Below, in pieces: positions 7,957 through 59,061 of a stretch of 64,000 nt of DNA. This DNA comes from an uncultured Bdellovibrionales bacterium. Lineage in GTDB: Bacteria; Patescibacteriota; Minisyncoccia; Moranbacterales; GWC2-37-73. Numbering within the stretch: the stretch's first letter is position 1; every line of letters starts with the position of its first letter. Position numbers and translations under genes: made by a program. Under the pieces are notes generated by a model. It had not been told where the DNA came from. It worked only from the letters and a program-made list of their open reading frames with translations, and made no database searches. The stretch covers positions 94 to 64,093 of the forward strand of contig CAZSTB010000007.1 of NCBI GenBank assembly GCA_964609855.1, in the 5' to 3' direction.

Positions 7957-7994
7957 AGCCCAGCAACCAAACAGGATGCTGGGCTCGTTTTTTT
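7957..7994 (+). terminator. Rho-independent terminator
   Basis: agcccagca-accaaacagga-tgctgggct followed by 7 T. Confidence 0.65.
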
Positions 7995-8039
7995 AACATT
8001 ATTTATCACTATTTTTGAGCAAAAAATTTCAAAAACACA

Positions 8040-8068
8040 TTGCCAACATCAAATCAAGGTGATAATAT
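8040..8068 (+). promoter_or_regulatory. Sigma70-like promoter TTGCCA-17-TAATAT
   Basis: ttgcca acatcaaatcaaggtga taatat; would place conserved motif 8095-8160 in the 5' UTR. Confidence 0.5.
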
Positions 8069-8094
8069 GCCTATACAAAGTATTAATATTATCG

Positions 8095-8160
8095 GCGCTC
8101 GCTCGGAAATTGAAAAGAGTACTTTTCATTTCACTCGACTTCGCTAGATAATAAGTAAAC
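8095..8160 (+). promoter_or_regulatory. Conserved ~65-nt leader motif copy 1 (hairpin GAAATTGAAAAG-AGTA-CTTTTCATTTC plus CTCGACTTCGCTAGATAATAA)
   Basis: ~80% identical to 42410-42477; stem shows compensatory changes between copies. Confidence 0.4.
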
Positions 8161-8169
8161 TAAAACCTT

Positions 8170-8751
8170 ATGGATAAAGAAGTACTAAGTCTTTTGGGAA
8201 GCGGAAAGCTCATTCCAACCGAAGAAATAGCAGAAATCTCAATTCAACTAAAAAAACATGGTCGCCGAGTTGTTCTAACTCAAGGCGTATGGGACCTTAT
8301 TCACGAAGGACATGCTCAATATCTTCATAAAGCAAAGCAGTTAGGCGATGTGCTAATTGTAGGTGTCGATACAGATGAGGTAGTAAAGCACCGCAAGGGC
8401 CCTACCCGACCGATAGTTCCAGAACAAGAAAGAGTAAAGATGATTTCCCATTTAAGGTCAGTAGATCTGATTGTTATGAAGGAATCAAAAACCGATCATG
8501 GCAAATTGATTAGAGACATCCAACCAGATGTATTGGTCATTTCAGAAACAACCCCACCAAATGTGGATGGAAAAACTTTCCTTGAAGAAATATGCGACGA
8601 ACATAAACCCTACTGCAAAGAAATAATCAACATGGAGCCCCAGTCCACTACTTCTACCACTGCCAGAATAAGACTTCTAACCATCAAGGGTGCTGAAGAT
8701 CTAGCCAAGGAATTACAGGAAGTTATCAGTAAGTTTCTTTATAAAAAATAA
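8170..8751 (+). CDS. Cytidylyltransferase-family nucleotidyltransferase (HldE/RfaE domain II-like adenylyl/cytidylyl-transferase)
   Basis: 193 aa; 'QGVWDLIHEGHAQYL...LGDVLIVGVDTDEVVKHRKGPTRPIVPEQERVKMISHLRSVDLIV' HxGH nucleotidyltransferase pattern. Confidence 0.7.
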   Translation: MDKEVLSLLGSGKLIPTEEIAEISIQLKKHGRRVVLTQGVWDLIHEGHAQYLHKAKQLGDVLIVGVDTDEVVKHRKGPTRPIVPEQERVKMISHLRSVDLIVMKESKTDHGKLIRDIQPDVLVISETTPPNVDGKTFLEEICDEHKPYCKEIINMEPQSTTSTTARIRLLTIKGAEDLAKELQEVISKFLYKK

Positions 8752-9593
8752 TGGAAAAAATTCTCATAGCTCTGGTCCCAGTTATTCATATTAAATATCT
8801 TGAGCTTTTCAAAAAATATCCCGACCATTTGTATATTTTAGATGATTCCATCCTGCAAAAATGGGGCAGATTTGAGTATCTAAAAAGAGACCTTAGGACG
8901 ATCGACCAACAAACTGTTTTTGATTTTATAAAAAAATCAGGAATCGTAAAGAAGGTTAATTTATTGACAGCTGAAAATCTAAAGAAAGTAACCGATCTTG
9001 AGGATACCTGTTTTGTCCTGCCAAATGAAGACGTTTCACACTGGTTCAAGGAAGAATTTCTTAGCGGAAAAAATGTTGAATTCGAAAATGTTTTCTTGAG
9101 ATGGAATAAACCAGTCTCCACACAGGAACTTGAAGTTTCCAATAATAGAATTATTACACAAGAAGAAGCTCATAGAGAGCTAATCAAAGAAGCTAATAAA
9201 GAGGCGGAAGAAAGTGCTAATTGGTGGAGACAGATTGGAACACTAGTAACCGATATAAAAGGAAATGTAATACTCAAAGCCTTTAACCGCCACGTCCCAA
9301 CCCAAGAGAATATGGCAGCTTACGGAGATTTAAGAATGTGTTTTGATGCAGGTGAAAATCACCATCTTTCAAATTCAATACATGCGGAAGCATCCTTGAT
9401 TGGTAAGGCAGCAAAGGATGGAATAAAATTAGAAGGTACTAATCTTTATGTATCAACATTTCCCTGCCCGACTTGCGCCAAATTGGTAGCTGAAGCAGGC
9501 ATTAAAAAAGTTTATTACCAAAGCGGATATTCCCTTTCTGATGCTGAAGACATTCTTAAAAATGCTGGGGTAGAGCTTATCTTGGTTAAGTAA
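8751..9593 (+). CDS. dCMP/CMP deaminase-domain protein with unknown ~150 aa N-terminal domain
   Basis: 280 aa; C-terminal 'HAEASLIGKAA...STFPCPTCAKLVAEAGIKKVYY' zinc-binding deaminase motifs; start overlaps upstream stop (TAATGG). Confidence 0.7.
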   Translation: MEKILIALVPVIHIKYLELFKKYPDHLYILDDSILQKWGRFEYLKRDLRTIDQQTVFDFIKKSGIVKKVNLLTAENLKKVTDLEDTCFVLPNEDVSHWFKEEFLSGKNVEFENVFLRWNKPVSTQELEVSNNRIITQEEAHRELIKEANKEAEESANWWRQIGTLVTDIKGNVILKAFNRHVPTQENMAAYGDLRMCFDAGENHHLSNSIHAEASLIGKAAKDGIKLEGTNLYVSTFPCPTCAKLVAEAGIKKVYYQSGYSLSDAEDILKNAGVELILVK

Positions 9594-35939: not shown

Positions 35940-37850
35940 CTATCTTGCTACTTTTCCATTTGCATATCCAACTGCTGAGTCTTCAGCTAATTGCGTATCT
36001 TTAGCCTCACCTTGAAGTACGATATCCTTGTTAATGAAGCCATCCTTAGCTACGAAAGAAGATTTGCCTAGAAGTTGAATAGGCTGACCAACTTGGTTTA
36101 TCTGTGGAGTTACACCCACCTGAAAAATAATTTCACGCGGCGGCATTAAAATCCCACTTCCTGCAATTACATCTCCCGCATCCCAAACAAGTTGGTTAGT
36201 CCTTTCATTATAACTGATTTTATCATTAAGTGGGAAAATTTTTCCAGTCCATCGCACACCTGATGGTAATGAGCCCATCACTTTAACATCTTTTATATCA
36301 TTAGAAATGTTTGTTATCAGCCAATGCAACGTGAAAGTGGTTTCTGTGCCGACAACCATCGGAATAGGTCCAGTATTTGGAATTTTTGTATCATTATAAT
36401 AGCCTCTTGATTCAAAAAGCACTTTCGATGCAAGCCTTAATTCCATTCTATCAGTATCGATAATCTTATTGGAATCGATCGGAGTAGGAATATCTGGTGA
36501 ATCAATTTTTGCAATCGAAGAAACTATGAAATTTTTATCCAATTTGTTTTCTATCACAATAATATCTTTAACAGGAATAGAAAATAAAACACTTCCACCT
36601 GTCTTAGGCGCGATATTTGCAAGACCGGGAGCATCTGATGCTTTCCAAGTTATAAGACCCTTGGCTGCATCAAAAGAACCTCCTGAAGTTTGAATCTTGG
36701 AAAAATCCAATATTTCTCCCTTAATTTCTGCAGAAATAATCGCATCCCTCAACCCGATATCACCGGTATTGTAATAAGAAATCTTATATTTTAAAATTTC
36801 TCCTGCAGCAATATTATTATCAGATCGTCCCTCCAAAGACTGCTTCACGTCAAGGACTGGGGTGACAATAAGAGTGTTTTGCTCCTGCTTATTGAACACA
36901 ATAAATTCACCACTTTGACCCATGCGACCAAGAGAGGCAGTTATCTGCTTAGTTTCGCCATTTTCTCCATTAATTTGACCCTGTATCTTAATCTTGCCTG
37001 ACTGACCAGATTCTAGATTGCCCAAATACCAATAAATATCTTTCTCGGAAGGTTTTGGCTCAGCATTGTTCATCTGGAATCCTTGCGGAAAATCAATTCT
37101 GATTTGAGCGCCATTCATCTGCCTAAAATCAAGATTTTCATAATTGATTTCATATTCCATGATATCCCCGCTTACCAATTTTTGCGGCGCAGAAATATCC
37201 AAAATCACAGGTGCCGTAGCGATGTTTACGCCAATCTGATTCTCCATCTTAAGCTCACTATTTCCATTCGATGGAGTAAATAGCATTTCTACATTTAAAT
37301 AAACTGGAAAATCCTTAGGTGCATAAAAAATACCCCTCAGATCAACCTCTCCTTCACTCATCGGCTTTATATCCCCAAGAAAAATTTTACTTGCCGAAGG
37401 ACTAAGAAATTTCAAGTTTACATTATCAGTCGGCTGAAAATTCTCAGTATAATGAAGCTGAAGTATTACACCTTTAAGTGCAACTCTATTGTTATTCTTA
37501 TAATGAATTCCGTATTTTACCTGCTGAGTACTATCAGCTTCCTTAGGGCCCACAAAAGATATTTCAACGCGATCTTGATGAAAAGCATTCTTTGTCCACC
37601 AGCTATAAAAGTAAGCTCCCCCAATAGCCAAAAGAATCAAACCTAAGATTATAAGACCGATCCAGAGTTTCTTTTTTCCCGAGGGTGTTAGACCCTTTTG
37701 CGGTTGATTCCATTTTTCCTGGCCTTCAAAGGGATTAGGTGCACCACTGGGGCCAGACAAAGGATCATACTCACTGCGCTCATGTTCGCGATTAATCGCT
37801 TTATCTGCAGTCTGACTGTAAAGTTCCTTATTGAGATTATCAAGAGGCAT
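35940..37850 (-). CDS. Hypothetical membrane-anchored exported protein (636 aa, beta-rich)
   Basis: N-terminal Pro-rich cytoplasmic tail, TM helix 'LWIGLIILGLILLAIGGAYFY', long extracellular region. Confidence 0.5.
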   Translation of the reverse strand: MPLDNLNKELYSQTADKAINREHERSEYDPLSGPSGAPNPFEGQEKWNQPQKGLTPSGKKKLWIGLIILGLILLAIGGAYFYSWWTKNAFHQDRVEISFVGPKEADSTQQVKYGIHYKNNNRVALKGVILQLHYTENFQPTDNVNLKFLSPSASKIFLGDIKPMSEGEVDLRGIFYAPKDFPVYLNVEMLFTPSNGNSELKMENQIGVNIATAPVILDISAPQKLVSGDIMEYEINYENLDFRQMNGAQIRIDFPQGFQMNNAEPKPSEKDIYWYLGNLESGQSGKIKIQGQINGENGETKQITASLGRMGQSGEFIVFNKQEQNTLIVTPVLDVKQSLEGRSDNNIAAGEILKYKISYYNTGDIGLRDAIISAEIKGEILDFSKIQTSGGSFDAAKGLITWKASDAPGLANIAPKTGGSVLFSIPVKDIIVIENKLDKNFIVSSIAKIDSPDIPTPIDSNKIIDTDRMELRLASKVLFESRGYYNDTKIPNTGPIPMVVGTETTFTLHWLITNISNDIKDVKVMGSLPSGVRWTGKIFPLNDKISYNERTNQLVWDAGDVIAGSGILMPPREIIFQVGVTPQINQVGQPIQLLGKSSFVAKDGFINKDIVLQGEAKDTQLAEDSAVGYANGKVAR

Positions 37851-45533: not shown

Positions 45534-46724
45534 TTAAAAAGGTGAAACTTCTTTCCATTGTCCTGTTGAACGCGGAGAACAGTCGGCACTTGATGAACAA
45601 GTCGCTTCTGGCAGACATTCCGCATTATAATCAACGGCGAGAATCAATGGGTCCGCTTCTTCACATGAATTCAAACTGCACGCTTTTGCTCTGCAACCCA
45701 CAAATATAGTTTGCACAGATGGCGGCAATTCTACATTAAATTGATCAATACAGTTCAGTTGGTATTCGGCGCTTCTTCCTTGTGGAACTATATCCATCTG
45801 CCTAGCCTCCAAAGGTGCAAGAGCTAAATTACCAGACCAAACAGGGTCACATGTGCCAGATTTACATACTGCCTGACAGGAAAGTATATTTCCAGTCAAA
45901 ATCCATGATAGTGTAACTTTTTTTTCATTCAAAGGAAGTGTGCCAAGCGACTGACCGGAAAATAAAGTAATGTATTGAGCAGAAGCTGACAAAGTTGCTG
46001 TTGGAACATTCACTATCGCACTTCCACTTTGTGAATTAAAATTAAGCCATCCTAACTCGAATGCACCCTCGGGACTTGCGGACAAAGCATACCCCTCAAG
46101 AGCATGCGTGCTTGAATTAATAGTTACGCCATAGGCGGTACCCGAACCATCGTTTATTGTTCCACTTAATTTTATCCAACCTTTCCAACCTCCGGCGTTA
46201 GCGTTCACTTCGCCTGCACTACAAATATTATCAGCATCACTTCCGTCGCACATGCTGATAATCCGAGCCCATCCAGTCAAAAAATTTCCACTCCCATGAC
46301 TTGTCGCGGAACAACCAGAAACCGGGTCTGGCACTGGACAGCCAACAACATCAGCTGCATTAAAACTAATCCAACCAATGTTTTCACTCCAGGCGTAGCC
46401 AGAAATTACTCCGCTAAGCGGTATAGCTAATCCGTATTGAGCCACAGGAGAACCCGAAACTGGGCAACCCACAATTCCCTCAGAAAGTCCATCACCGTTT
46501 GAATCGCAGTTCAAGCTGTTCGTACTGACCCATCCAAAATTTGTATTTGTGCCGTCAGCTGTTGGATAAGATCCGAGCTGACTGCCGCCACCCCAAAACC
46601 ATCCACTAACATTATCCATAACACCGGCATTTGTCTTTTCCAGCACAGCAAATACCAGAGCGAACAATCCACAAAAAAACAGACTGAATTTTAAAATATT
46701 TTTTTTGTATTTTTTTTCTGACAC
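45534..46724 (-). CDS. Hypothetical secreted Cys-rich protein with GW-containing repeats (paralog of 50191-51273)
   Basis: 396 aa; signal anchor; repeated 'G(Y/F)AWSxNxGWI(S/D)FN', 'GWARIIS'; conserved C-terminus 'GQWKEVSPF'. Confidence 0.55.
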   Translation of the reverse strand: MSEKKYKKNILKFSLFFCGLFALVFAVLEKTNAGVMDNVSGWFWGGGSQLGSYPTADGTNTNFGWVSTNSLNCDSNGDGLSEGIVGCPVSGSPVAQYGLAIPLSGVISGYAWSENIGWISFNAADVVGCPVPDPVSGCSATSHGSGNFLTGWARIISMCDGSDADNICSAGEVNANAGGWKGWIKLSGTINDGSGTAYGVTINSSTHALEGYALSASPEGAFELGWLNFNSQSGSAIVNVPTATLSASAQYITLFSGQSLGTLPLNEKKVTLSWILTGNILSCQAVCKSGTCDPVWSGNLALAPLEARQMDIVPQGRSAEYQLNCIDQFNVELPPSVQTIFVGCRAKACSLNSCEEADPLILAVDYNAECLPEATCSSSADCSPRSTGQWKEVSPF

Positions 46725-46740
46725 AATGGTTTACTTTAAT

Positions 46741-47028
46741 TTATTTTTTCACTGCTGGCTCCGGCTGCATTGCAGTATTATTCAAACAAGCTCCATCAAC
46801 TAATTGTATCTTAGCGTCTTCCTTGCGAACTTCGAATGGGTTGCACCCACTTTCCTTGGTTTGCTTCATCAGCTGCATTATTGAATCCGTGTAACCAGTT
46901 TTATAAGAATTTTGCATCGCGCCTATCTTGAAAGCTTGATACTGGTCAAAAATAACATAGCCAGTCGTAGCGACAAACCAAAGAATTATAACTGTTTTTA
47001 TTATATCTTCTTTTTTAATCGTCATCAT
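46741..47028 (-). CDS. Hypothetical small membrane-anchored protein
   Basis: 95 aa; N-terminal TM 'IIKTVIILWFVATTGYVIF'. Confidence 0.45.
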   Translation of the reverse strand: MMTIKKEDIIKTVIILWFVATTGYVIFDQYQAFKIGAMQNSYKTGYTDSIMQLMKQTKESGCNPFEVRKEDAKIQLVDGACLNNTAMQPEPAVKK

Positions 47029-47064
47029 TACGTTTTTTAAAAAATATTATTGAACTGAATTACA

Positions 47065-47784
47065 CTAGTTTTCTGGTTGAGCCAATGGAGCCACAGCAGC
47101 AGGAATAACATCAGAAGCAGCAATTGGAGCAGCTGGAGCCTGTGGCATTGCATCAGGTAATGGTGTAGCAATTGGAGCGACTGGCTGCGCAGAAGATTGG
47201 CTAGCATTTGGCATGGCGATATTCTGCTGAACATTTATCTCTTTAGCCACAAATTCTTTTTTATCTTTAATATTCTCACCCGCAGTAACCGACACTTGTT
47301 GTCCCTGTTTAAGCTCCGAGAGTTTTACTTCAGTTTTTTCAAATGGCGTTGGAGCCTCAAGTTGAGTCATGTTCACATCCTGCTGACTGGTCATCATCTG
47401 CTCTCGAAACACTCTCATCTCTTCTTGAAACTTGGTCATATCTTTCTGCATAGAAAGATAAATCTTTGTTTCAGGATTAAGCGTCACAATTCTCATATCC
47501 AAAGCCTCATCCGCCAATGGCTCTAAAGGTTTAATTTTGATTTCAAGTTTTCCACCCTCATTTTTTTCAACCACACCATTTATGGTTCTAATATCTGAAC
47601 TGATCAACATCCCCGTTTCAGATTGTGCCAATCTTTCCTTAGCTGCATTCCAGCCAGCTTGGTAAGAATCTTCCTTGGGTTGTAAATTATTTGTTGTGAT
47701 TTTTCTAGGAAGCGCCATACCTATAGCGATACCAATAGGCACAAGGAATAGAATGACAAGGATGCAGAGGAGGATTTTTTTCAT
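47065..47784 (-). CDS. Hypothetical membrane-anchored exported protein with Pro/Ala-rich C-terminus
   Basis: 239 aa; N-terminal TM, C-terminal 'PVAPIATPLPDAMPQAPAAPIAAS'. Confidence 0.5.
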   Translation of the reverse strand: MKKILLCILVILFLVPIGIAIGMALPRKITTNNLQPKEDSYQAGWNAAKERLAQSETGMLISSDIRTINGVVEKNEGGKLEIKIKPLEPLADEALDMRIVTLNPETKIYLSMQKDMTKFQEEMRVFREQMMTSQQDVNMTQLEAPTPFEKTEVKLSELKQGQQVSVTAGENIKDKKEFVAKEINVQQNIAMPNASQSSAQPVAPIATPLPDAMPQAPAAPIAASDVIPAAVAPLAQPEN

Positions 47785-47796
47785 AATTTTACTTGT

Positions 47797-50061
47797 TTAA
47801 TTGTTTATTTTTTTTAAAGCTTCGATTTGTGATTTAATATTCTCAATATCTTCTTTTAATAATTGATTTTGATGATCCTGCTCTTCAATTTGTTTTTGCT
47901 GTTCTTTGATTGCGCTCAGTAAAATAGGGGTCATCTTGGAGTAGTCCATACCCGTAACATACCCTGGAGCATCTTTATCCCAAGAAACAACTTCGGGGAA
48001 ATACTTACCAACTTCTTCGCCAATAAATCCAAGGTCTTTTTGTCCACCATGTTCTTCATCCCAGTTATAGTATACAGCTGAAATATTATTTATTTTTTCA
48101 AGAACATTGTCCAGTTCCATCACATTTTTCTTCCAGCGACCAGAAGAAGCTGCACCATAATTTACGCCAGGTCCTGCAGCATAAAAATCATATGCCCATC
48201 CATTTCCATAAACACCCGTACTGCCAGCATTATTACTAGACCCATAGACACCATAAGTCGTACCATCACCAAAAACACCCGCTATATTTCCCATTCCATA
48301 TATACCATAATCGCCTACGCCATTTACTCCCTTAGTACCACCCACTAGAGGAGCCTCTCCTGTAACTCCAGTATTCGTACCTACTCCATATGCTCCATAT
48401 GCTGACCCCGTATTGGCATATAATGCCGTATTTGCATAGCCAGCTGCACCAATACTCAATTTTGAAAGTGGAGCACTTGTTCCAATTCCAACATTACCAG
48501 TTCCAGTAATGAGAGCGTATCCCGATCCTGAGGTAAAGTAACCACCAGTTCCGCTTATAGCTGTACCATACACACCAATTCCAGTTGCCCTATTTTGTGC
48601 ATCCCCCCAAACCCCAGTCAAGCCTTGTCCAACCACTCCAGCACCTCCGGTAGTGTTTTGATTAAAACCATAAACACCCTGAGAAGAAACTCCAGAGCCC
48701 TGACCAACAACTCCAGTACCCCCATATCCATAAATACTCCAACCGGCTTGACCATTACCACCGACACTCAACTTTGCAGCAGGCGCTGCAGTTCCAATTC
48801 CCACATTCGTTCCGTTATCGAAAATCTGAGAATTTCCAATCGCAGTTACACTTGTTAATTTAGGAATATAATTTGCGGTTCCACCTCCAGTTATGGTTCC
48901 GCCACCACCAACCGGCCAACTATTTATACAACTAGCTCCAATACAAAATTGGGTATTCGCCCTGACAGTTGTTGCTTGCATTTCGCCTGGCGCATAAACA
49001 TTACCCGCGCCATATGCCCTAATCCAAGTGTTATCAGTCATATTCCATCCGCCGCCATGATCTTGGAAATAAAATCCGGAATCGCCTTGTGCCCTAAACC
49101 AACCATTGGCATATATGGTGCTAACTTGAGATGCGCCATTTGGATCAAGATAATAACCGGAATTATTAGCATCATAAAAAATTGCGGCGTATTCAGCGCC
49201 ATCAGAACCGCTATAATGATTTCCTTGCCAATTGTTTAGTGAGAGCTTGCCACCAAGAATATTGGAAATCCAGTCGCCAGCCCATGCCATATAGATATTG
49301 CCATTACTCGCATAGTGGTTTCCATACTGCCATGAATCCCAGTTAATACTGTTTGCAGCAGTTGGCCAACTGGCTATACAACTTCCTCCAATGCAAAAAC
49401 CTCCATCCCCCCGTACTTGCCCAGCCGTGTAAGAGTTTCCATTAGTATAAACACCCCAAGAAGAACTTGGATAACCCAAATATGTATAGTAACCAGAATT
49501 GTTTTCAGCATACAATCCCCCGGTATTTTTAAAATATCCACCCAAACCGATACTACTGAGTAGTGTTGTGCCGCCAGTTCCATTTATCGTAACTTCACCA
49601 TGCGTAATCAGCCCCCCATCAAGATCAAGGTTGAATAATTTAGAGTTTCCATATGGATCAACCTTATAGTCACCATTATTCACATCAACAAACTGACTGC
49701 CATAAGAATATCCGTTCGCCCAAATATTGTGCGCTGCCAAACCCTGTCCGCCATAAACGCTGCCGGCCGCATCGCCGACATATAACCATGGCCCGCTAGA
49801 ATTCAATGACTGATTACCTATTCCAATCCCACCCGTGCCGTAAGTTCCCCCGCCGGTAATTTTCAGATATCCCGCCTTGGTTTGTGTGGCAGTACCTTCA
49901 TTTATCGGTGCGCCAATGTTTCCACCTGGAGGATTGGTTGTCGGCTCAGTCCAAGCAGAAACCATCCTCACTGATTGAAGTACAAAAAAGACAAGCGCTG
50001 CCAAAGTTAGATAGTTAATAGCTTTTTTAACCTTTCTTTTGGATTCTTTTTTTATTTCCAT
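47797..50061 (-). CDS. Gly-rich surface protein with C-terminal intramolecular-chaperone (peptidase S74 / tail-fibre-like) domain and coiled coil
   Basis: 754 aa; N-terminal anchor then 'W.EPT.NPPGGN.GAPIN.G'; C-terminal '...KKNVMELDNVLEKINNISAVYYNW...LGFIGEEVGKYFPEVV...MDYSKMTPILLSAIKEQQKQIEEQ' matches S74 auto-processing domain pattern. Confidence 0.6.
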   Translation of the reverse strand: MEIKKESKRKVKKAINYLTLAALVFFVLQSVRMVSAWTEPTTNPPGGNIGAPINEGTATQTKAGYLKITGGGTYGTGGIGIGNQSLNSSGPWLYVGDAAGSVYGGQGLAAHNIWANGYSYGSQFVDVNNGDYKVDPYGNSKLFNLDLDGGLITHGEVTINGTGGTTLLSSIGLGGYFKNTGGLYAENNSGYYTYLGYPSSSWGVYTNGNSYTAGQVRGDGGFCIGGSCIASWPTAANSINWDSWQYGNHYASNGNIYMAWAGDWISNILGGKLSLNNWQGNHYSGSDGAEYAAIFYDANNSGYYLDPNGASQVSTIYANGWFRAQGDSGFYFQDHGGGWNMTDNTWIRAYGAGNVYAPGEMQATTVRANTQFCIGASCINSWPVGGGGTITGGGTANYIPKLTSVTAIGNSQIFDNGTNVGIGTAAPAAKLSVGGNGQAGWSIYGYGGTGVVGQGSGVSSQGVYGFNQNTTGGAGVVGQGLTGVWGDAQNRATGIGVYGTAISGTGGYFTSGSGYALITGTGNVGIGTSAPLSKLSIGAAGYANTALYANTGSAYGAYGVGTNTGVTGEAPLVGGTKGVNGVGDYGIYGMGNIAGVFGDGTTYGVYGSSNNAGSTGVYGNGWAYDFYAAGPGVNYGAASSGRWKKNVMELDNVLEKINNISAVYYNWDEEHGGQKDLGFIGEEVGKYFPEVVSWDKDAPGYVTGMDYSKMTPILLSAIKEQQKQIEEQDHQNQLLKEDIENIKSQIEALKKINN

Positions 50062-50190
50062 ATTTTATTTTTTAATTAATATTATTATATCACATTTCAT
50101 AAATCACTGCAAATTGTTTTAAGTAAAAAAGTAAACAAAATAAAAAATAGGCACAAGCCTATTTTTTAAGAATCTTAAATTTTACTCAAC

Positions 50191-51273
50191 TCATGGTGCT
50201 ACCTCTCGCCATGTGCCAGTTTGTCTGCCTTTGCACTGATTATCTTGCGTGCATTCTTTTTTTATACAAACATCAGGATTGGTAGTAGCAACTGAAGATG
50301 CATTACATACCTGAGAGCCGCAAGTGTAATCAAAGCAAGCCGTAAAGATGTTTCTAATTTCCGTTGTTGTTCCCATAGAGTTTGTGCATTCAACCTTGTA
50401 AAAAACATTTGGAGCGCTTTGATCTAGATTGGTAATGTTGTCCACATTCGGACTTGGAGATACAACTGTTTCACTAAATTCTCCAGCGCTTTGATATGTG
50501 ACACCATCCTCACTCCAACTTTCACTGCATTGAGTTGCGTCATCAACTCTCCATGTGAGTTTAACTAAGTCCGTTTTTGTTTTCCAATCAGGAGTTGCAA
50601 CGATATCAATAACCGAAGGCGAGGCTGCAAATGTAATCATTGGCGTAACCTTTGCTTTTATCTCAAAAGCAAATGCGCCCAAACCTTGAATGGAGCCGTT
50701 TTTAATCTCCTCACCATTCCAAGCATAACCAGTAAGTTTATTGGTAACGGGATTTACCTTGACGCCATATCCAGCTACGGCTGTGTCCATTTGAATCCAA
50801 CCCTCCCATCCACCAGAATTGCCAATTGCTGAAGCTTCTGCAATTGAGACTACTCTCGCCCAGCCTTTTAGGTTATCGCCTACGCGCGAAACTCCTGTAG
50901 TAGCGTTTCCATCAGGGTTGTTGCAAGAGGCGGCTTTGTATTGCTGTTTTGTTGTATCTGGAATTCCGGTTGTGCAATGTTCTTGTGGATTGAAATCAAT
51001 CCAACCATAATTTGAAGACCAAGCAAATCCGGTAAGATTTTCATTGCCGCCAGGCAGCATAACGCCGTATGCTGCGCCGTTTCCTGCATCAGGTGTTCCA
51101 CTACTGAGACTTATCCATCCCACCCCGGATGAATTTCCGACTAAATCAGTCGATCCGCCCCAAATCCAACCGAGAAGACTGGATGCGGCTTGGGCGTATT
51201 GAAACTTCAAAAATGTTGAAATTCCAAAGACGGCAGTAAAAATCAGAACTGAAAATAATATTTTGTTTTTCAT
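50191..51273 (-). CDS. Hypothetical secreted Cys-rich protein with GW repeats (paralog of 45534-46724)
   Basis: 360 aa; 'GWIWGGSTDL', 'GFAWSSNYGWIDFN', 'GWARVVSI', C-terminal 'GTWREVAP'. Confidence 0.55.
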   Translation of the reverse strand: MKNKILFSVLIFTAVFGISTFLKFQYAQAASSLLGWIWGGSTDLVGNSSGVGWISLSSGTPDAGNGAAYGVMLPGGNENLTGFAWSSNYGWIDFNPQEHCTTGIPDTTKQQYKAASCNNPDGNATTGVSRVGDNLKGWARVVSIAEASAIGNSGGWEGWIQMDTAVAGYGVKVNPVTNKLTGYAWNGEEIKNGSIQGLGAFAFEIKAKVTPMITFAASPSVIDIVATPDWKTKTDLVKLTWRVDDATQCSESWSEDGVTYQSAGEFSETVVSPSPNVDNITNLDQSAPNVFYKVECTNSMGTTTEIRNIFTACFDYTCGSQVCNASSVATTNPDVCIKKECTQDNQCKGRQTGTWREVAP

Positions 51274-51299
51274 TTTATTTTAGATGACTCGCAAAATTA

Positions 51300-52526
51300 T
51301 TAGTTTCCGTATTGCACTTCAAGCGTGCAATCTATATCGCCCTGACCTGGATCATCGTCCGTATTAGCACCCTGGAGATAAATCGTTTTTCCAGCTGGTA
51401 TATTCAAACCGACTCTGGTGGAATCTAAGGCAATGCCACCGCCACTATCGCTCAGGCAAATATTAATATTACCATTGTTGTCTGCTGTCCAAGCCGGAGC
51501 CGGAATAACACATTGGTAGGATGTGCCACCATCAGGGCCACCTCCCATATCAACTGCTGTGAGTGTACCTGAACCTGCTGAACAAGTAGGGGTACCAGTA
51601 TCCCAACTAGCGTTTGTAGATATTGGGTATACATTATTATTCACATTGTTTCTACACCCAGCAGCCGCAGACGCTTCAGATTGTGTAGCAACAAACATAT
51701 TCCCATCGCCCCAATAAGCATAGCAAAAACCATTATTAACAGCAGAAACTCTAGCTTTCATGGCTACAATTTTCTTAGATGAAACAAAAGATTTTTTGGT
51801 ATTTGCATCTATAGTACTGAAGCCCCATCCTCTTAAATCATTATGCACATCTATAGTGACGGCATCTATTTTGAACCATGAACCGGAGGCTGCAGCCATA
51901 TTTGAATTGAATGGACAGCATTTTGTTGGCGATTTCATGTAATAACCCTCTTTACACTGTGTATTCGTGGCATCAATAGCATGGCATAAACTTGCATCAA
52001 CACTTTGTTCAAGTCCCGTTGTCTGCACTGAGCCGTCGGCAAATTTCACACCGCCGCCGCCGATAACAATTCCACCTTCCGGTGTTCTTCCAAGAGCTTT
52101 AGACGCTTGTTTTTTTCCTTCGAAATGAGCTTCCTCGATAGTGCGAGCCTTGATTACGACATCCACAGCTAACTGAAGATCTATCTTATCAAGAACTCCA
52201 TCTCCCGAAATATCACCCTCCACGAATTGCTCCTTTGTGGGTGTCCATTTTCCAGTTAAAAAATTACTTGTAGTAGTTACATCGGTAATACTGAGAATTC
52301 CATCGTTATTAACATCTCCATCTCCGCCACCAATATATAAAGCGCCTTCTCTGTATTGAGCGGTATCGCCGATATTTATGGGTGCGTCAACATTTCCACC
52401 AGGAGCAGGTTGCGTTGGAGCAACCCATCCCGCTGATGCAAAATTGTCATCAGTTACGATGAAAACTGCCAACAAAACTATCAGGGATAATTTCAAAAAC
52501 GAAGATTTAAACAAGAGAGCTTTCAT
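51300..52526 (-). CDS. Hypothetical exported protein with dockerin-like Ca-binding repeats
   Basis: 408 aa; shares N-terminal 'GWVAPTQPAPGGNVDAPINIG' motif with 47797 gene; 'GDVNNDGILSITDV' and 'GDISGDGVLDKIDLQLAVDVV' dockerin-type repeats. Confidence 0.5.
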   Translation of the reverse strand: MKALLFKSSFLKLSLIVLLAVFIVTDDNFASAGWVAPTQPAPGGNVDAPINIGDTAQYREGALYIGGGDGDVNNDGILSITDVTTTSNFLTGKWTPTKEQFVEGDISGDGVLDKIDLQLAVDVVIKARTIEEAHFEGKKQASKALGRTPEGGIVIGGGGVKFADGSVQTTGLEQSVDASLCHAIDATNTQCKEGYYMKSPTKCCPFNSNMAAASGSWFKIDAVTIDVHNDLRGWGFSTIDANTKKSFVSSKKIVAMKARVSAVNNGFCYAYWGDGNMFVATQSEASAAAGCRNNVNNNVYPISTNASWDTGTPTCSAGSGTLTAVDMGGGPDGGTSYQCVIPAPAWTADNNGNINICLSDSGGGIALDSTRVGLNIPAGKTIYLQGANTDDDPGQGDIDCTLEVQYGN

Positions 52527-52547
52527 ATTTTTCTTTTTAACTTATTA

Positions 52548-52862
52548 TTATTCAATTCCCATTTCTCTAAAGAGCCTTGCTCCTTCCTCTGCGGAGATAG
52601 CTTTTTTCTTTTCCGGATCACTCTCTGCTTCAACCTTGGCGGTCATCTCTTCAAATCTTTTTTCCAGGTCTTTTTCTGAAATTACGCTTTGCCCATCATC
52701 AGTGTTACTAGTCGATTCATTTCCATTGATCATTTTTGTGCCAGCATTTTTAAGCGCACTTCCGACTGGCAGCTTTTCTTTTGCAAGAAAAATTACCAAA
52801 CCAGTCGCTATCATAAGTAGCACCAGCAATATCCCGATTATGATTTTCATTTTACGATTCAT
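52548..52862 (-). CDS. Hypothetical small membrane-anchored protein
   Basis: 104 aa; N-terminal TM 'IIIGILLVLLMIATGLVIFL'. Confidence 0.45.
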   Translation of the reverse strand: MNRKMKIIIGILLVLLMIATGLVIFLAKEKLPVGSALKNAGTKMINGNESTSNTDDGQSVISEKDLEKRFEEMTAKVEAESDPEKKKAISAEEGARLFREMGIE

Positions 52863-52966
52863 TTTTGTTTGAATTATTTATTTAAATTTGAAACAGTTTC
52901 AAAGTTAGAACTAAAAAAATTATATCACAAAAATTGTAAAAAGTTAAATTGCATCTCGAAAGTAAA

Positions 52967-57471: not shown

Positions 57472-59061
57472 TCAATCTTTTTTGCTGCTGATTTCATGGC
57501 CTTCATGTATGCTTTTACCGAAATTGAAACTAAGTGCTGCTCCTATTGAATTCAAATCCCGACTTCTCAAGCCACCATACATCGCGCCTTTTTTCCAAGG
57601 ATACATATCAGAAAAAAATCCCAATGAAATGAACTCTTTGTATATTATTTCCGCAGGCACGACATGCAATCTCCATGTCTTACTCCAGTCTTCGTATTGC
57701 GGACCAAGTCCTGATTTCAAGCTCCAGTTTCCAGAGGTATAGACATGACTGCCTATTAATGAAAAAGTTGGATCCATTTCCATTGCTGTTTTATCGCCCA
57801 AAGAAAACCAGTTTTCATTCATAAGTTCGAGTGTTGATTTCTGATTCAACTGATAGTGAGCTCCAAGCATTGATCCGAGCCTATAATAATTCTCCGATTT
57901 TATTGGTGTCATCTGATTCATATCTTCACTTTCTGCATTCAATTCCATCAGATCGCCAGTGGACATCGCATCCTCGCTTTCCATTGAAATCGTTTTAAGC
58001 ATCGGATCGCCATCCGAAAAAAGAACGGGATTAGATTTTTGACTGACACTCCGAAATGACTTACCTGCCATCACTTTTCCATAAACCATCCTTACCAAAT
58101 GATCTTCGCTATGATCAATATATTTAAGCCCGAGCTGCATTCCTGGCGTAATTGCTCTGATGCGAGCGTTAGAGATTTTATCCTCCCAAGCGCTCGCAAA
58201 TACTCCTACTCCCAGACTAAAATTTTCGCCAAGATTTGGAATATTTGACCAAGCCATATAATCCAGCATTCCTCCAGTCATTTCGTCAACCCTATTTTTT
58301 GACGACATACCATTAAGGGAAAGCTGATTCTCAATTCCGCTTAAAATGGAAGCGCTACGAACAATATCAGCTGCAGCTTCTTTGAGTTCTGGAACATTTT
58401 CGGACATGACATCATCAGATGTAAATTCCAAAGACGGTTCGATAATTGGTTTTTTTACCTCTTGATAAAGCTTGGCAACCATCATATCTAAGGCGCTGGC
58501 GTCCTTTCCTATTTGCGCGATAGCAATTTCTTGTTTTTCTACTTCATCAGCAGCGTCTGCAAATAAGTTAGATCTCTCATCATCTGCGTGAACAATTTCC
58601 ATATTCGCTGCAATTTCTGCACTAACATTTTGCTTTTTAGTTTCAACAATTTTACTACGGTCAACGTCATACTCAATTTCTGGGACTTTTTTCCGTTCCT
58701 CAATTTTCATTTCCTCAATTCCAGACACAGGCGCAAATTTTCTACGCAAAATTTTAAAGCCAATCCTCTTTGTAGAATTGCCCAGTTTTATGATGGCACC
58801 AGCGCGAATCTTGTCGGGATTTTTTATTCCATTTATCCGAGCAAGAAAAATAGCTTTCTTTTCGGTGCCAAAATACTTCAAAGAAATCTTACGCAGCATG
58901 TCACCTTTTTTGATTTCGTAACTCATACCTTTCACACTGTTTGCATTTTGCGAATCAGCAAAAGAATAGGAAACCATCCCGAGCGAAAAAAACAGAAACA
59001 GAAAAAATACCTTGGTCATCTCTTTCATTGCATCCTCCGTGTTTGAGTTAAGGGTTAACAA
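57472..59061 (-). CDS. LysM domain-containing exported protein
   Basis: 529 aa; signal peptide; LysM 'YEIKKGDMLRKISLKYFG...IRAGAIIKL'. Confidence 0.65.
   Translation of the reverse strand: MLTLNSNTEDAMKEMTKVFFLFLFFSLGMVSYSFADSQNANSVKGMSYEIKKGDMLRKISLKYFGTEKKAIFLARINGIKNPDKIRAGAIIKLGNSTKRIGFKILRRKFAPVSGIEEMKIEERKKVPEIEYDVDRSKIVETKKQNVSAEIAANMEIVHADDERSNLFADAADEVEKQEIAIAQIGKDASALDMMVAKLYQEVKKPIIEPSLEFTSDDVMSENVPELKEAAADIVRSASILSGIENQLSLNGMSSKNRVDEMTGGMLDYMAWSNIPNLGENFSLGVGVFASAWEDKISNARIRAITPGMQLGLKYIDHSEDHLVRMVYGKVMAGKSFRSVSQKSNPVLFSDGDPMLKTISMESEDAMSTGDLMELNAESEDMNQMTPIKSENYYRLGSMLGAHYQLNQKSTLELMNENWFSLGDKTAMEMDPTFSLIGSHVYTSGNWSLKSGLGPQYEDWSKTWRLHVVPAEIIYKEFISLGFFSDMYPWKKGAMYGGLRSRDLNSIGAALSFNFGKSIHEGHEISSKKD

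Follow-up and report, generated by a model that had tools for sequence, protein, structure and literature searches.

A gene module specific to Patescibacteria as a possible pilus-linked system for mounting surface adhesins

Introduction

The aromatic hairpin repeats of cell-wall-binding proteins, such as the choline-binding and GW modules, resemble the G-(Y/F)-A-W-S-x-N-x-G-W-I-x-F unit of the proteins described below. The known O-glycosylation sites of pilins are rich in Pro, Ala and Thr. A precedent for a pilus link comes from Saccharibacteria, in which two proteins of the pilus locus, PilX1 and PilX2, have no PilD-type signal and the latter promotes binding to the host (PMC11623550). The present locus belongs to an ultra-small Patescibacteria/CPR bacterium, and was analysed within the window, i.e. 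the whole 64-kb stretch of DNA.

Results

Gene organization and putative transcription units

Seven co-directional genes (g1 to g7) were located in the ORF list between rsmI and argS, as the first-pass annotation had reported. An independent gene caller recovered the same genes on two Logan contigs (L001 and L002), where they are flanked by ArgS (Arg_tRNA_synt_N, tRNA-synt_1d, DALR_1) and a TP_methylase (RsmI-like) gene.

45534-46724, minus strand: g1, ORF of 396 aa with a GTG start, GWI-family paralog A
46741-47028, minus strand: g2, ORF of 95 aa, single-pass membrane protein of the 'S2' family
47065-47784, minus strand: g3, ORF of 239 aa, N-terminally anchored, with a Pro/Ala-rich tail
47797-50061, minus strand: g4, ORF of 754 aa, Nmot protein with a Gly-rich tail-fibre-like shaft and an S74 chaperone end
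50191-51273, minus strand: g5, ORF of 360 aa, GWI-family paralog B
51300-52526, minus strand: g6, ORF of 408 aa, Nmot protein carrying a dockerin-type payload and, at its C-terminus, a domain of 10 Cys without assigned fold
52548-52862, minus strand: g7, ORF of 104 aa, single-pass membrane protein, acidic tail with two short internal repeats

The intergenic gaps of the cluster are 12-36 bp, except for the single long gap of 129 bp between g5 and g4. Promoter-like and terminator-like sites from a consensus scan coincide with the two longer gaps of the cluster, the site of g7 lying within the 132-bp gap between rsmI and g7. Apparently, there are two putative transcription units, A (g7-g6-g5) and B (g4-g3-g2-g1).

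52919-52947, minus strand: promoter-like site TTAACT-17-TGnTATAAT upstream of g7 (consensus match only, 10/12)
50141-50168, minus strand: terminator-like hairpin with a 12-bp stem and a T run, just after g5 (consensus scan)
50084-50113, minus strand: promoter-like site TTTGCA-18-TGnTATAAT upstream of g4 (consensus match only, 10/12)

Export signals

An N-terminal hydrophobic segment is present in all seven proteins. The Kyte-Doolittle maximum over 17 aa was 1.8-3.2 in six of them; the segment of g7 was read from the sequence, because a longer overlapping ORF had displaced g7 from the computed table. A cut-off of 2.0 flagged four of the other window ORFs of at least 90 aa, and seven hydrophobic N-termini in a row are therefore not a matter of chance. 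The initial reading of all seven as signal anchors needs to be divided. In g1, g4, g5 and g6 the segment terminates in an A-x-A-type site, which makes cleavable Sec signal peptides likelier than anchors; the N-termini of g2, g3 and g7 look like membrane anchors. Both calls were made by eye. The prepilin signal G|F-T-L-I-E was found in none of the seven proteins.

The GWI family

The two Cys-rich proteins g1 (17 Cys) and g5 (10 Cys) were confirmed as paralogs (BLASTP E=2e-23; 24% identical along their whole length). Both contain GYAWSxNxGWIxF / GWAR units and a C-terminal G-x-W-(K/R)-E-V-x-P.

46020-46625, minus strand: GWI domain of g1 (residues 34-235), predicted to be β-rich with hairpins; its only (weak) matches are 8-stranded up-and-down β-barrels
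50659-51183, minus strand: GWI repeat domain of g5 (residues ~31-205), four Trp/Gly-rich β-hairpin units, from alignments and homology to the modelled g1 domain
45537-45563, minus strand: tag G-Q-W-K-E-V-S-P-F of g1, directly before the stop codon (motif search)
50194-50217, minus strand: tag G-T-W-R-E-V-A-P of g5, directly before the stop codon (motif search)

Alignments showed that the W-x-E-V-x-P tag is kept at the extreme C-terminus throughout the family. The GWI proteins span 264-2608 aa, with both ends conserved and a variable middle. The predicted architecture is a signal peptide, a β-barrel of four Trp/Gly hairpins, an Ig-like or Cys-rich stalk, and the tag; no solved homolog of the barrel domain was found. 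Homologs of the family number at least 657; none of them has a name, and most come from MAGs of Patescibacteria. The GTDB species genomes contain 232 relatives, and the family was not found in IMG/VR. The first-pass annotation had missed the tag as a family feature, the predicted β-barrel nature of the repeats and the repeated association with type IV pilus operons (see below).

The Nmot family

The N-terminal motif that g4 and g6 were said to have in common was recovered by BLASTP (E=8e-8). The consensus of this handle is W-T-E-P-T-x-x-P-P-G-G-N-x-x-A-P-I-N...Q-x-K-x-G-x-L, with at least 11 nearly invariant positions within 30 residues. The handle profile retrieved 9,243 cluster representatives at E<=1e-3, and the handle was always N-terminal (residues ~2-80) in proteins of 73-820 aa. 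An Nmot protein appears to be built from a signal peptide, the conserved start and a variable payload. The payloads seen include Gly_rich_2, S74, Shufflon_N, collagen, LVIVD and Gp10_C; most resemble nothing known. The S74 and dockerin domains are not defining parts; they occur in 3/144 and 0/144 family representatives, respectively, and are rare, swappable C-terminal payloads. The handle has no model in Pfam or NCBIfam and was not found in IMG/VR. Neither of the two core families, GWI and Nmot, has a Pfam, NCBIfam, PHROG or PADLOC model or a description found in the literature, which agrees with the earlier view that no described system was recognised here.

The fibre-like protein g4 consists of 19% Gly, and three regions were delimited.

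49852-50061, minus strand: signal peptide (..RMVSA|W) and Nmot handle (residues 1-70), from alignments and the handle profile
48913-49686, minus strand: PilV (shufflon)-like module in two copies (residues 126-383), from internal repeats and alignment to P0166
47800-48147, minus strand: S74 intramolecular chaperone (residues 639-754), from PF13884 and alignment to PDB 6f45

The handle of g4 reads W-T-E-P-T-T-N-P-P-G-G-N-I-G-A-P-I-N-E-G-T-A-T-Q-T-K-A-G-Y-L. The PilV-like module has the pattern D-x-N-N-x-x-Y-x-x-D-P-x-G-x-S ... C-I-G-x-S-C-I-x-S-W-P, and its internal repeats are located at residues 126/297 and 223/373. Residues 317-370 lie within a 113-column alignment (41% identical; pairwise E=2e-16) to P0166, which is a true GFTLIE pilin and carries Shufflon_N; the Pfam cut-off of Shufflon_N is passed by g4 homologs but not by g4 itself. 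The proposed S74 domain was verified by Pfam (Peptidase_S74, PF13884) at residues 639-692 (E=5.6e-11, 43 bits, cut-off 22). Ser639 and Lys644 occupy the Ser-x4-Lys positions of this domain ('SSGRWKK' vs 'SDRRIKK' in the alignment to the distal subunit of a phage long tail fibre, PDB 6f45), and the domain includes a helical region at its C-terminus. The PHROG and 6f45 alignments extend to about residue 740; what had been described as a separate coiled coil belongs to the same chaperone domain. The g4 homologs are Patescibacteria 'tail fiber domain-containing proteins'.

In g6, the N-terminal region could be aligned with 18 other Nmot family members, and its handle reads W-V-A-P-T-Q-P-A-P-G-G-N-V-D-A-P-I-N-I-G-D-T-A-Q-Y-R-E-G-A-L.

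52332-52526, minus strand: Sec-type signal peptide (..NFASA|GW) and Nmot handle (residues 1-65), from BLASTP against g4 and alignment
52170-52319, minus strand: two dockerin-type Ca-binding repeats, GDVNNDGILSITD / GDISGDGVLDKID (residues 70-119), from Pfam Dockerin_1

The dockerin repeats suspected in this protein were supported by Dockerin_1 (E=1.5e-6, 28.7 bits, cut-off 22.9), and the alignment to the solved cellulosomal type I dockerins 5nrk_B and 4dh2_B covers both. Among 5.8 billion proteins a single full-length homolog was found (P0122, 41% identity), which also carries the Nmot handle and the dockerin.

Small membrane proteins

Small proteins of the g2, g3 and S1 types are located between or beside GWI and Nmot genes. 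The 'S2' motif of g2 is W-F-x-A-T-T-G-Y-V-x-Y-D...Y-K..G with two conserved Cys, and all six homologs (E=1e-9 to 1e-28) directly adjoin a GWI gene. Homologs of g3, which has no Pfam match, adjoin g4-like or GWI genes in L010 (E=2.4e-18), L019, L045, L079, L127 and L161. Between GWI and Nmot genes there is a class of small TM proteins, 'S1', to which g7 might be weakly assigned, given one phmmer link (E=1e-4) and a common architecture; the g7 family is weakly linked to the module.

Linkage and chromosomal slot

Within 10 kb on each side of the GWI genes, an Nmot gene was found in 52 of 80 genome loci and was missing in about a third. Some homologs of g4 stand by themselves amid housekeeping genes. 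The two genes lie within 1.5 kb of each other in 49 of the 52 linked loci and on the same strand in 51. Reciprocally, a GWI gene is next door in 16 of 30 long metagenome loci anchored on Nmot. Some of the locus MAG titles name non-Patescibacteria taxa. Many Patescibacteria genomes have four of the five families (GWI, Nmot, g2-type and g3-type) next to one another, which bears out the earlier suggestion that these secreted or anchored proteins belong together. The module is flanked by argS, rsmI, uvrA and ileS, and the slot is kept across genomes. The rsmI-[module]-argS arrangement also occurs in at least three other Moraniibacteriota-labelled genomes (L015, L018 and L023); similar uvrA-linked slots, not matched on both sides, were found in L017, L037 and L040. 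The GT4 gene after argS is part of this conserved flank and not of the module. As to the conservation expected in relatives, the module and its slot do recur; whereas the seven-gene cluster is no conserved unit. The real unit is a module of 3-4 genes, present here in two adjacent copies and comprising a GWI gene, at least one Nmot gene and genes for small single-pass membrane proteins. The GWI/Nmot module is Patescibacteria-specific, widespread and undescribed.

Proximity to type IV pilus genes

PilB/T/C/M genes lie within 10 kb of 14 of the 80 GWI loci, compared with 0-2 of 80 for a handful of unlinked single-copy control genes. In L047, where the flanking genes were confirmed by Pfam, the order is PilT-PilC-pilins-Wzy_C-PilD-152aa-Nmot-GWI-GspH-like minor pilin-two more pilins. 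The arrangement in L073, read from sequence only, is similar, and pilus-like operons end in Nmot genes at L102, L122, L148-150, L157 and L165. The 64-kb window contains no pilus gene and no prepilin-type ORF, and the syntenic Moraniibacteriota loci are likewise in a housekeeping context. Since the module stands beside or inside type IV pilus operons in relatives, it probably serves attachment to partner cells.

Discussion

The preferred reading, to which we give an even chance, is that a Patescibacteria-specific surface module is present here in two copies side by side, and that its GWI protein connects the Nmot payloads with the envelope or with type IV pili for host or partner binding. All parts would be exported through Sec, and signal peptide cleavage would make the Nmot start a shared handle on which different distal payloads can be mounted. 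The GWI protein might be the stalk or adaptor between these payloads and the envelope or pili, its middle being a variable-length, Ig-like, disulfide-rich stalk between the conserved barrel and the tag; a possible contact of GWI with Nmot or the pilus is suggested only by gene neighbourhood. The g2, g3 and g7 proteins probably help to tether or assemble the complex at the membrane. The payload of g4 would be a trimeric, phage-tail-fibre-like and PilV-like fibre, folded by its S74 chaperone, which would then cleave itself at Ser639; the payload of g6 would be a Ca-binding module of the dockerin type and, after it, a globular Cys-rich domain. Once assembled, the structure may attach to the surface of host or partner cells.

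It is extremely improbable that the locus is a prophage remnant with g4 as a leftover tail-fibre gene whose neighbours are unrelated to it or are accessory genes of a phage. PHROG tail-fibre families and the S74 chaperone do match the last third of g4; further matches are the tail fibres of various phages, T5-like ones included, and, for residues 183-338, a Synechococcus phage protein. However, the PHROG tail-fibre matches are confined to the C-terminal part; phages match g4 only in distal parts, none covers more than 30% of it, and g1 has no match among 50,697 phage genomes. No phage gene (capsid, portal, terminase, integrase or baseplate) was detected among the cluster and neighbour proteins scanned. 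The housekeeping flanks, the conserved slot, the limited phage coverage, and the Sec signal and handle of g4, the latter common to more than 9,000 clusters and not found in IMG/VR, largely refute this explanation. A cellulosome-like assembly, in which a cohesin carried by another cluster protein, such as the Cys-rich paralogs, would receive the dockerin of g6, is also very improbable. The dockerin match is above the Pfam cut-off with both Ca-binding repeats covered, and is kept in P0122; but neither the cluster nor the ten neighbouring window proteins scanned showed a cohesin, and the cohesin-dockerin pair proposed earlier is therefore left without evidence.

The Nmot proteins might instead make up a new Sec-dependent filament, independent of type IV pili, in which the conserved N-termini of the subunits mediate polymerisation and GWI is the anchor or nucleator, in the manner of terminal-strand use in TasA fibres, archaeal bundling pili and Bacillus endospore appendages. 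This is rather unlikely. The mature N-terminus is the conserved part, most members are small, at 100-300 aa, and their genes often stand in tandem arrays of 2-6 (L046, L048, L071 and L074), small TM proteins and an accessory protein whose ends are conserved are always nearby, and many genomes, like the present one, lack a pilus gene in the vicinity. However, the handle is Pro/Gly/Asn-rich with no obvious donor strand, S74 fibre or collagen payloads typify terminal adhesins rather than repeating subunits, and the placement between PilD and minor pilins favours a pilus connection. There is similarly a small chance that these are ordinary cell-wall-binding or S-layer-type proteins, whose GW repeats bind peptidoglycan or teichoic acid and whose clustering is only a habit of surface genes; the monoderm-like CPR envelope needs non-covalent anchors, and the GWI barrel may have a carbohydrate ligand. 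Less probable still is that the Nmot motif is a site of modification or processing, such as O-glycosylation of W-T-E-P-T-x-A-P-P by the Wzy_C-type enzyme of the pilus operons, rather than a docking handle. The motif follows a Trp and is rich in Pro, Ala and Thr like the pilin sites, N-(T/V)-S follows A-P-I in about half of the members, and a Wzy_C/TPR O-antigen-ligase-like gene (Pfam-confirmed) lies between the pilins and PilD in L047; L073 holds at the same position a protein of similar size and N-terminal sequence, as judged from sequence reading. However, the near-invariance of the handle exceeds the needs of known glycosylation sequons, and the module itself has no glycosyltransferase. Modification and docking are compatible with each other.

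Returning to the preferred reading, this would be a modular surface adhesin-mounting system, possibly linked to pili, with a mechanism that we infer. As for its likeness to known systems, the shaft of g4 and the PilV-type pilins have one module in common.

Gene organization and export signals

The seven genes of the cluster (g1 to g7) are located on the minus strand between rsmI and argS. The ORF list bore out the coordinates of the first-pass annotation, and the same seven genes were called independently, by a separate gene caller, on two public short-read assemblies (SRR446577 and SRR446575). Genes for arginyl-tRNA synthetase and a TP_methylase (RsmI-like) protein border the cluster in these assemblies, which confirms the flanks proposed earlier. 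Two protein families defined in this analysis, GWI and Nmot, account for four of the genes.

Genes of the cluster (source: ORF list)
45534-46724, minus, g1, 396 aa, GWI protein
46741-47028, minus, g2, 95 aa, small anchored protein
47065-47784, minus, g3, 239 aa, small anchored protein
47797-50061, minus, g4, 754 aa, Nmot protein
50191-51273, minus, g5, 360 aa, GWI protein
51300-52526, minus, g6, 408 aa, Nmot protein
52548-52862, minus, g7, 104 aa, small anchored protein

The spacing is tight as described, with intergenic gaps of 12-36 bp, except for the 129-bp gap between g5 and g4. Promoter-like and terminator-like sites were confined to the two sizeable gaps of the cluster.

Putative transcription signals (consensus matches only)
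52947-52919, minus, promoter-like site in the rsmI-g7 gap
50168-50141, minus, terminator-like hairpin with a 12-bp stem, after g5
50113-50084, minus, second promoter-like site, before g4

The cluster is composed of two units with parallel gene content. Unit A includes a small TM protein (g7), an Nmot protein (g6) and a GWI protein (g5); unit B includes an Nmot protein (g4), g3, a small TM protein (g2) and a GWI protein (g1). Searches of the seven proteins against Pfam, NCBIfam, PHROGs and PADLOC returned nothing beyond the S74, dockerin and phage tail-fibre C-terminal matches. An anti-phage defence system was also considered and dropped, as no meaningful PADLOC match was obtained. A 164-aa plus-strand ORF (52378-52872) overlaps g7 and the start of g6; it is probably spurious, because the gene caller picks g7 there on two Logan contigs carrying the same genes (L001 and L002).

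All seven proteins had been described as carrying N-terminal signal anchors. A hydrophobic start was found in 7/7, that of g7 being read from the sequence, as a longer overlapping ORF had displaced this gene from the computed table; four other ORFs of at least 90 aa in the window also passed the cut-off of 2.0. The anchor part of the description appears not to hold throughout. The segments of g1, g4, g5 and g6 look like cleavable Sec signal peptides, because an A-x-A-type site closes each of them (TNA/G, VSA/W, AQA/A and ASA/G, respectively, with the slash at the putative cleavage site); those of g2, g3 and g7 look like uncleaved anchors. Sorting by sortase (LPXTG) or PEP-CTERM signals was not supported, since the C-termini (..GQWKEVSPF, ..GTWREVAP, ..EALKKINN, ..LEVQYGN and ..APLAQPEN) have no hydrophobic tail. 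No lipobox was found, and a lipoprotein assignment was rejected.

Other candidate envelope proteins are encoded within 12 kb of the cluster, and none of the three shows GWI or Nmot features.

Other features of the window
35940-37850, minus, 636-aa DUF11-repeat protein, without N-terminal hydrophobic segment at the listed start
57472-59061, minus, 529-aa LysM protein, with N-terminal hydrophobic segment
59275-59679, minus, 134-aa DUF7282 protein, with N-terminal hydrophobic segment
14374-14594, plus, tRNA-Ala(TGC)/tRNA-Ile(GAT) pair

Such a tRNA-Ala/tRNA-Ile pair is the usual occupant of rRNA spacers; ARAGORN and Rfam agree on the pair and on the lack of an rRNA gene in the window.

The GWI family

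The proteins g1 and g5, noted at first pass as Cys-rich paralogs, were confirmed as such (E=2e-23, 24% identity over the full length, 17 and 10 Cys). The GWI family defined here comprises proteins with a signal peptide, four hairpin units, a variable stalk and a C-terminal tag, and all four features are present in both g1 and g5. Alignments showed that the N-terminal ~200 residues are conserved, with four units G-(Y/F/W)-x-W...G-W-(I/V)-x-(F/L). The middle differs in length and kind (Ig-like, PKD, Big_2 or FN3), and the GWI-labelled ORFs span 169 to 2608 aa, some of them clipped by the locus end. At the extreme C-terminus is W-x-E-(V/I/T)-x-P, with 0-2 residues left before the stop; the strict pattern was found in 40 of the 86 GWI ORFs, and more cases were seen by eye, often with L-P-L-P in front. 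A subgroup from Paceibacterota/Pacebacteria (L012, L013 and L016) lacks this tag and ends in ..C-x-x-N-(I/V)-C-Q-C-(V/T)-I, and further GWI proteins close with a hydrophobic stretch (..FNFLKF, ..NLIFF). These ends are alternative C-terminal connectors.

Of 8,000 candidates scored with a profile built from g1 and g5, at least 657 were homologs, every one unnamed or 'hypothetical'; those with an organism name belong to Moranbacteria, Pacebacteria and similar groups. Scanning one genome per GTDB species revealed 232 relatives, and the best 80 of these loci mostly carry Patescibacteria record titles, including Moraniibacteriota, Paceibacterota, Parcubacteria, Kaiser-, Nealson- and Yonathbacteria, and many 'Candidatus Saccharibacteria'. 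The other titles among the best 80 are Bdellovibrionales (n=5), Gammaproteobacteria (n=1) and Elusimicrobiota (n=1), and several records have no taxon. The seven oddly titled MAG loci (L018, L022, L025, L039 and L088, Bdellovibrionales; L063, Gammaproteobacteria; L053, Elusimicrobiota) resemble the rest, with the same families and, in L018, uvrA/argS synteny; they are possibly mislabelled bins.

The Nmot family and its payloads

The first ~60 residues of g4 and g6 are alike (E=8e-8), in agreement with the common N-terminal motif reported for the pair. The family N-terminus consists of an A-x-A signal peptide end, then W-T-E-P-T-x-A-P-P-G-G-N-V-G-A-P-I-N-T-S-x-x-x-Q-x-K-x-G-x-L. Within this 'handle' the residues W, P, N, P, Q and G are invariant, and A, P, G, A, N and K nearly so. 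The Nmot family was defined here as an A-x-A signal peptide end followed directly by W-x-x-P ... P-x-x-N ... P-(I/L/V)-N ... Q-x-K-x-G. Both g4 and g6 have this arrangement, with all invariant columns aligned (W37, P45, N48, P52, Q60 and G64 in g4 numbering); g4, as P0241, scored 87 bits against a profile built partly from g4 itself.

The 70-position handle profile matched 9,243 proteins at E<=1e-3 (4,185 at E<=1e-10) among 1.84 billion cluster representatives. The match always falls within residues ~2-80, and the lengths of the proteins range from 73 to 820 aa. From the record titles of the closest relatives, we infer that the lineage is Patescibacteria. No Pfam or NCBIfam model covers the handle. 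Most of 144 of the best representatives were blank in Pfam; the others included Gly_rich_2 (6), Peptidase_S74 (3) and Shufflon_N (2), single cases of collagen, LVIVD and Gp10_C, and a few more, with dockerin in 0/144. The handle is thus the constant part, and everything downstream of it is variable payload. In L046, L048, L071 and L074, one or two GWI genes are surrounded by three to six Nmot genes in tandem, which suggests rapid paralog expansion or alternative payloads.

The g4 payload contains the S74 domain recognized at first pass (PF13884, residues 639-692, E=5.6e-11, 43 bits against the Pfam cut-off of 22). It sits at the C-terminus behind a Gly-rich repetitive shaft, which includes two N-V-G-I-G-T-x-A-P-x-x-K-L-S units; the protein is Gly-rich as stated (19% Gly). 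In the S74 family (MEROPS), a nucleophilic Ser is followed five residues on by a Lys, a spacing that Ser639 and Lys644 fit. The segment S639-S-G-R-W-K644 aligned onto the S-D-R-R-I-K cleavage motif of the phage S16 long tail fibre (PDB 6f45), and the alignment continues through the helical end of the domain. The C-terminal 147 residues alone retrieved 6f45 in phmmer; full-length g4 matched no PDB sequence. The closest full-length relatives are 'tail fiber domain-containing proteins' of Patescibacteria.

After the handle, g4 has two copies of a module D-x-N-N-x-x-Y-x-x-D-P-x-G-x-S ... C-I-G-x-S-C-I-x-S-W-P. The module core (residues 317-370) lies within a 113-column alignment with 41% identity to P0166, a true prepilin of 504 aa (..RGFTLIE..) with Pfam Shufflon_N; the two have Y-A-N-x-W-F-R-x-Q-G...W-x-M-T-D-x-T-W-I-R-A-Y in common. 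The same adhesin module therefore occurs on a pilin helix and on an Nmot handle. Four homologs of g4 (P0123, P0125, P0134 and P0154) pass the Shufflon_N cut-off (37-40 bits against 27.5), and g4 has no Shufflon_N match in Pfam at E<=1. The alignment of ~55 residues between g4 and the Shufflon_N pilin represents a shared module and not family membership.

The g6 protein is arranged as handle, dockerin pair, Gly run and a 10-Cys C-terminal domain, for which no match was found. The dockerin-like similarity was verified by PF00404 (Dockerin_1) at residues 70-119 (28.7 bits against a cut-off of 22.9), and the Ca-binding loops D-x-N-x-D-G...D and D-x-S-x-D-G...D align with the solved cellulosomal dockerins 5nrk_B and 4dh2_B. 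Only one full-length homolog, P0122 (41% identity, likewise with handle and dockerin), was found among 5.8 billion proteins, and g6 is therefore unusable for synteny.

Co-conservation and chromosomal slot

Conservation of the cluster in relatives, which the first reading had made a test of its proposal, was found for the families and not for the seven-gene array. The ORFs of the 80 GWI-anchored genome loci (mean 14 kb) were searched with the window proteins, and trimmed alignments (A3, A7) were used for the scans, the untrimmed ones being too diverse. An Nmot gene was present in 52/80 loci; in 49 of these 52 no more than 1.5 kb separates it from the GWI gene, though 10 kb per side was available, and in 51 the two are on the same strand. 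Reciprocally, a GWI gene adjoins the Nmot gene in 16 of the 30 loci of at least 8 kb among 79 handle-fetched metagenome loci. Some g4 homologs are solitary among housekeeping genes, so that the linkage is frequent and not obligatory.

The small ORFs directly beside GWI genes form two families. In S2, g2 is joined by six homologs (E=1e-9 to 1e-28), and the TM region W-F-x-A-T-T-G-Y-V-x-Y-D is conserved, together with two Cys. In S1, a TM helix precedes an acidic tail in which short repeats such as E-I-I-K-S-L-S-A-P occur 2-3 times; g7 is tied weakly to S1, by one link (E=1e-4) and the common architecture. Homologs of g3 adjoin g4-like or GWI genes in L010, L019, L045, L079, L127 and L161; the order in L161, GWI-Nmot-g3-g2-Nmot, is near the g5-g4-g3-g2-g1 of the window. 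Small TM proteins between GWI and Nmot genes were also seen to carry 2-3 tandem (D/E)-x-E-I-I-K-S-L-(S/T)-A-P-like motifs in the acidic tail.

Repeat-tailed small TM proteins (examples; others occur)
L011 8354-8692
L017 11190-11534
L021 10782-11135
L038 10933-11229
L082 9008-9295

Upstream of some GWI genes, five conserved ORFs on the plus strand (..P-A-P-T-A-T-V-Q-T-G-Q-T-A...) were judged to be antisense artefacts, as the gene maps put opposite-strand genes there.

Plus-strand ORFs dropped from the analysis
L020 8813-9151, plus
L028 9627-9890, plus
L033 1100-1369, plus
L077 852-1106, plus
L086 9517-9792, plus

The chromosomal position is also conserved. The order UvrA-RsmI-[module]-ArgS(-GT4-IleS) was found in L015, L018 and L023 (the record titles being Moraniibacteriota, Moranbacteria or an unverified name); in L040, uvrA-rsmI is present on one side and the contig then ends, and L017 and L037 have the upstream uvrA in common. 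The module in these loci is GWI-g2-S1-Nmot, GWI-small ORF-Nmot or Nmot-g2-GWI. The window therefore has an expanded, rearranged version of a 3-4-gene module.

Association with type IV pilus genes

Homologs of PilB, PilT, PilC or PilM occur within 10 kb of the GWI gene in 14/80 loci, always co-directionally. As controls, nine housekeeping genes of the window outside the conserved synteny matched 0-2 of the 80 loci each, and seven of the nine matched none. For example, the order in L047 is PilT, PilC, two pilins, a Wzy_C/TPR protein, PilD, a 152-aa protein, Nmot (801 aa) and GWI (563 aa), followed by a GspH-like minor pilin, two more N_methyl pilins and LigA; the flanking genes were confirmed by Pfam. 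L073, by reading of the sequence alone, shows PilD, GWI and then three ORFs with prepilin-type N-termini. In L065 and L051, PilD or pilins are followed by a small TM protein, Nmot and GWI, and a short Nmot gene ends a pilus-like operon in several handle-anchored metagenome loci. The 64-kb window itself has no pilus gene and no prepilin-like ORF (leader Gly, F/M-x-x-x-E and hydrophobic helix), and neither the prepilin motif nor Pfam N_methyl was found in the seven proteins.

The Wzy_C/TPR (O-antigen-ligase-like) gene of L047 (3680-5845) lies between the major pilins and PilD, hinting at O-glycosylation of the pilin or of the Nmot handle; L073 has an equivalent gene (6985-9072, 695 aa) with similar N-terminal sequence. 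The handle begins with a Thr/Pro/Ala-rich stretch similar to the glycosylation sites known from pilins.

A link to pili has been noted for many poorly annotated, membrane-associated families enriched in CPR (Méheust et al. 2019, PMC6744442). In Saccharibacteria, the pilus-locus proteins PilX1 and PilX2 have no PilD-type signals, and PilX2 promotes host binding (PMC11623550); these proteins set a precedent, within this lineage, for adhesins that are not prepilins but work with pili.

Alternative interpretations and proposed mechanism

The phage-type fibre raises the possibility of a prophage remnant. Across 50,697 phage genomes, only distal parts of g4 matched (coverage <=30%) and the handle never did; the GWI family and the handle had no match in IMG/VR viral contigs, nor g1 in INPHARED, so that both core families are missing from the viral collections. 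The scanned proteins near the cluster include no phage structural or integration genes. Together with the housekeeping flanks, the conserved slot and the Sec signals, this contradicts a prophage origin. The cohesin-dockerin docking partner suggested at first pass found no support either: no cohesin match was obtained in the seven cluster proteins or ten scanned neighbours, and the dockerin is a rare payload. The repeats of the GWI domain might also recall a choline-binding-type wall anchor; however, neither profiles nor fold agree, as CW_binding-type repeats and a beta-hairpin solenoid were not found, and this reading is not supported. A carbohydrate may nevertheless be the ligand of the GWI barrel.

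Two other readings concern the Nmot proteins themselves. They might build a new Sec-dependent filament, which is possible given that many members are short and lie in tandem arrays; or the handle could be a modification site, a view favoured by the Wzy_C-type genes within pilus operons. The cluster is likely a dedicated surface or adhesion module, and this module may quite possibly work with type IV pili.

For such a module, a chain from envelope or pilus through GWI and Nmot handle to payload is proposed. The GWI protein, having two conserved ends and a middle of variable length, would be expected to act as a stalk or adaptor with two fixed connections; the Nmot proteins, with one conserved end and a free variable end, would be payloads mounted through the common handle. 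These two expectations, and the position of the handle in g4-type proteins at the place of the PilV-type pilin helix (the PilV mounting piece), led to the proposed chain. The small TM proteins might aid tethering or assembly; for g4, maturation into a trimer via S74 self-cleavage at Ser639 is proposed.

The best structural matches of the GWI domain are small 8-stranded up-and-down beta-barrels (avidins, YceI/lipocalin-like, TbpB/HpuA barrels and Gid4). In Gid4 and streptavidin, terminal peptides are bound inside the barrel, which suggested that either the W-x-E-containing Nmot start or the GWI tail may sit in the GWI barrel. With W-x-E occurring in both the handle (W-T-E-P) and the tail (W-K-E-V-x-P), the barrel is a candidate socket for peptide termini; this is speculative, and such specific docking of a terminus in the barrel is unlikely. 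A lineage-wide 'plug-and-socket' that arms the cell surface or pilus tip, in which the handle of thousands of secreted proteins plugs into the GWI barrel, GWI is fixed by its W-x-E-V-x-P tail, and payloads (phage-type S74 fibres, PilV-like tips, collagen or dockerin modules) are swapped to change host range, is a tentative and rather unlikely picture.

The S74 fibre and the dockerin add new members to domain families that are already known. The GWI barrel-stalk-tag protein, the Nmot handle and the small TM partners make up the conserved core, which is not covered by any profile of Pfam, NCBIfam, PHROGs or PADLOC and has no solved structural relative, and no paper describing the GWI or Nmot family was found in the literature searched. 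Its likely role is to mount adhesins, possibly on pili, and systems of this kind are known. How ultra-small episymbionts recognize and hold their hosts is a central question, and this lineage represents a large share of bacterial diversity. If the proposal is true, at least 9,000 Nmot-handle clusters and hundreds of GWI proteins could be read as parts of one system, the handle would be an easy sequence marker for picking out candidate adhesins in any Patescibacteria genome, and the variable payloads would be candidate host-range determinants. It would also be a further example of cells recruiting phage-type fibre modules. Even without the pilus link, a conserved lineage-specific surface apparatus would merit family definition.

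Comparison with known systems

The phage tail fibres and endosialidases with an S74 chaperone (K1F endoNF, T5 pb1 and S16 gp37) are similar to g4 in the S74 domain, the positions of the Ser/Lys dyad, the helical part and the Gly-rich shaft; whereas g4 appears to be a chromosomal, Sec-exported cellular protein and not part of a virion, and its N-terminus is the cellular Nmot handle instead of a baseplate-binding domain. Relative to the cellulosome, g6 bears a bona fide two-repeat dockerin-type Ca-binding module, and the way in which a small cellulosomal module carries a variable payload is broadly similar to the role proposed for the Nmot handle; however, the dockerin is not the conserved connector here.

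A short conserved N-terminal motif on variable fibre proteins, with a neighbouring possible attachment partner, is likewise found in the BclA-type exosporium nap fibres of Bacillus, where the N-terminal targeting motif of BclA fastens the trimeric fibre to a basal-layer protein of the exosporium. Patescibacteria do not sporulate, however, and the analogy is one of logic only.

Among pilus systems, the GWI and Nmot genes of L047 and L073 lie between PilD and minor pilins (GspH-like first in L047), which is the place of genes for PilY1-type tip adhesins, PilY1 being the partner of the FimU-PilVWX priming complex. A PilY1-like tip adhesin was rejected as a candidate, since the C-terminal beta-propeller (often with vWA) was not found. 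The GWI and Nmot proteins have no PilD-type signals, as is also the case for PilX1 and PilX2 of the Saccharibacteria TM7x. The PilV shufflon adhesins of IncI-plasmid thin type IV pili provide a further parallel: g4 carries two copies of the PilV constant-region module, and in both families a variable adhesive tip is set on a conserved mounting piece; whereas the prepilin leader and pilin helix of PilV are replaced in g4 by a Sec signal and the Nmot handle, and g4 is not accompanied by a shufflon recombination system.
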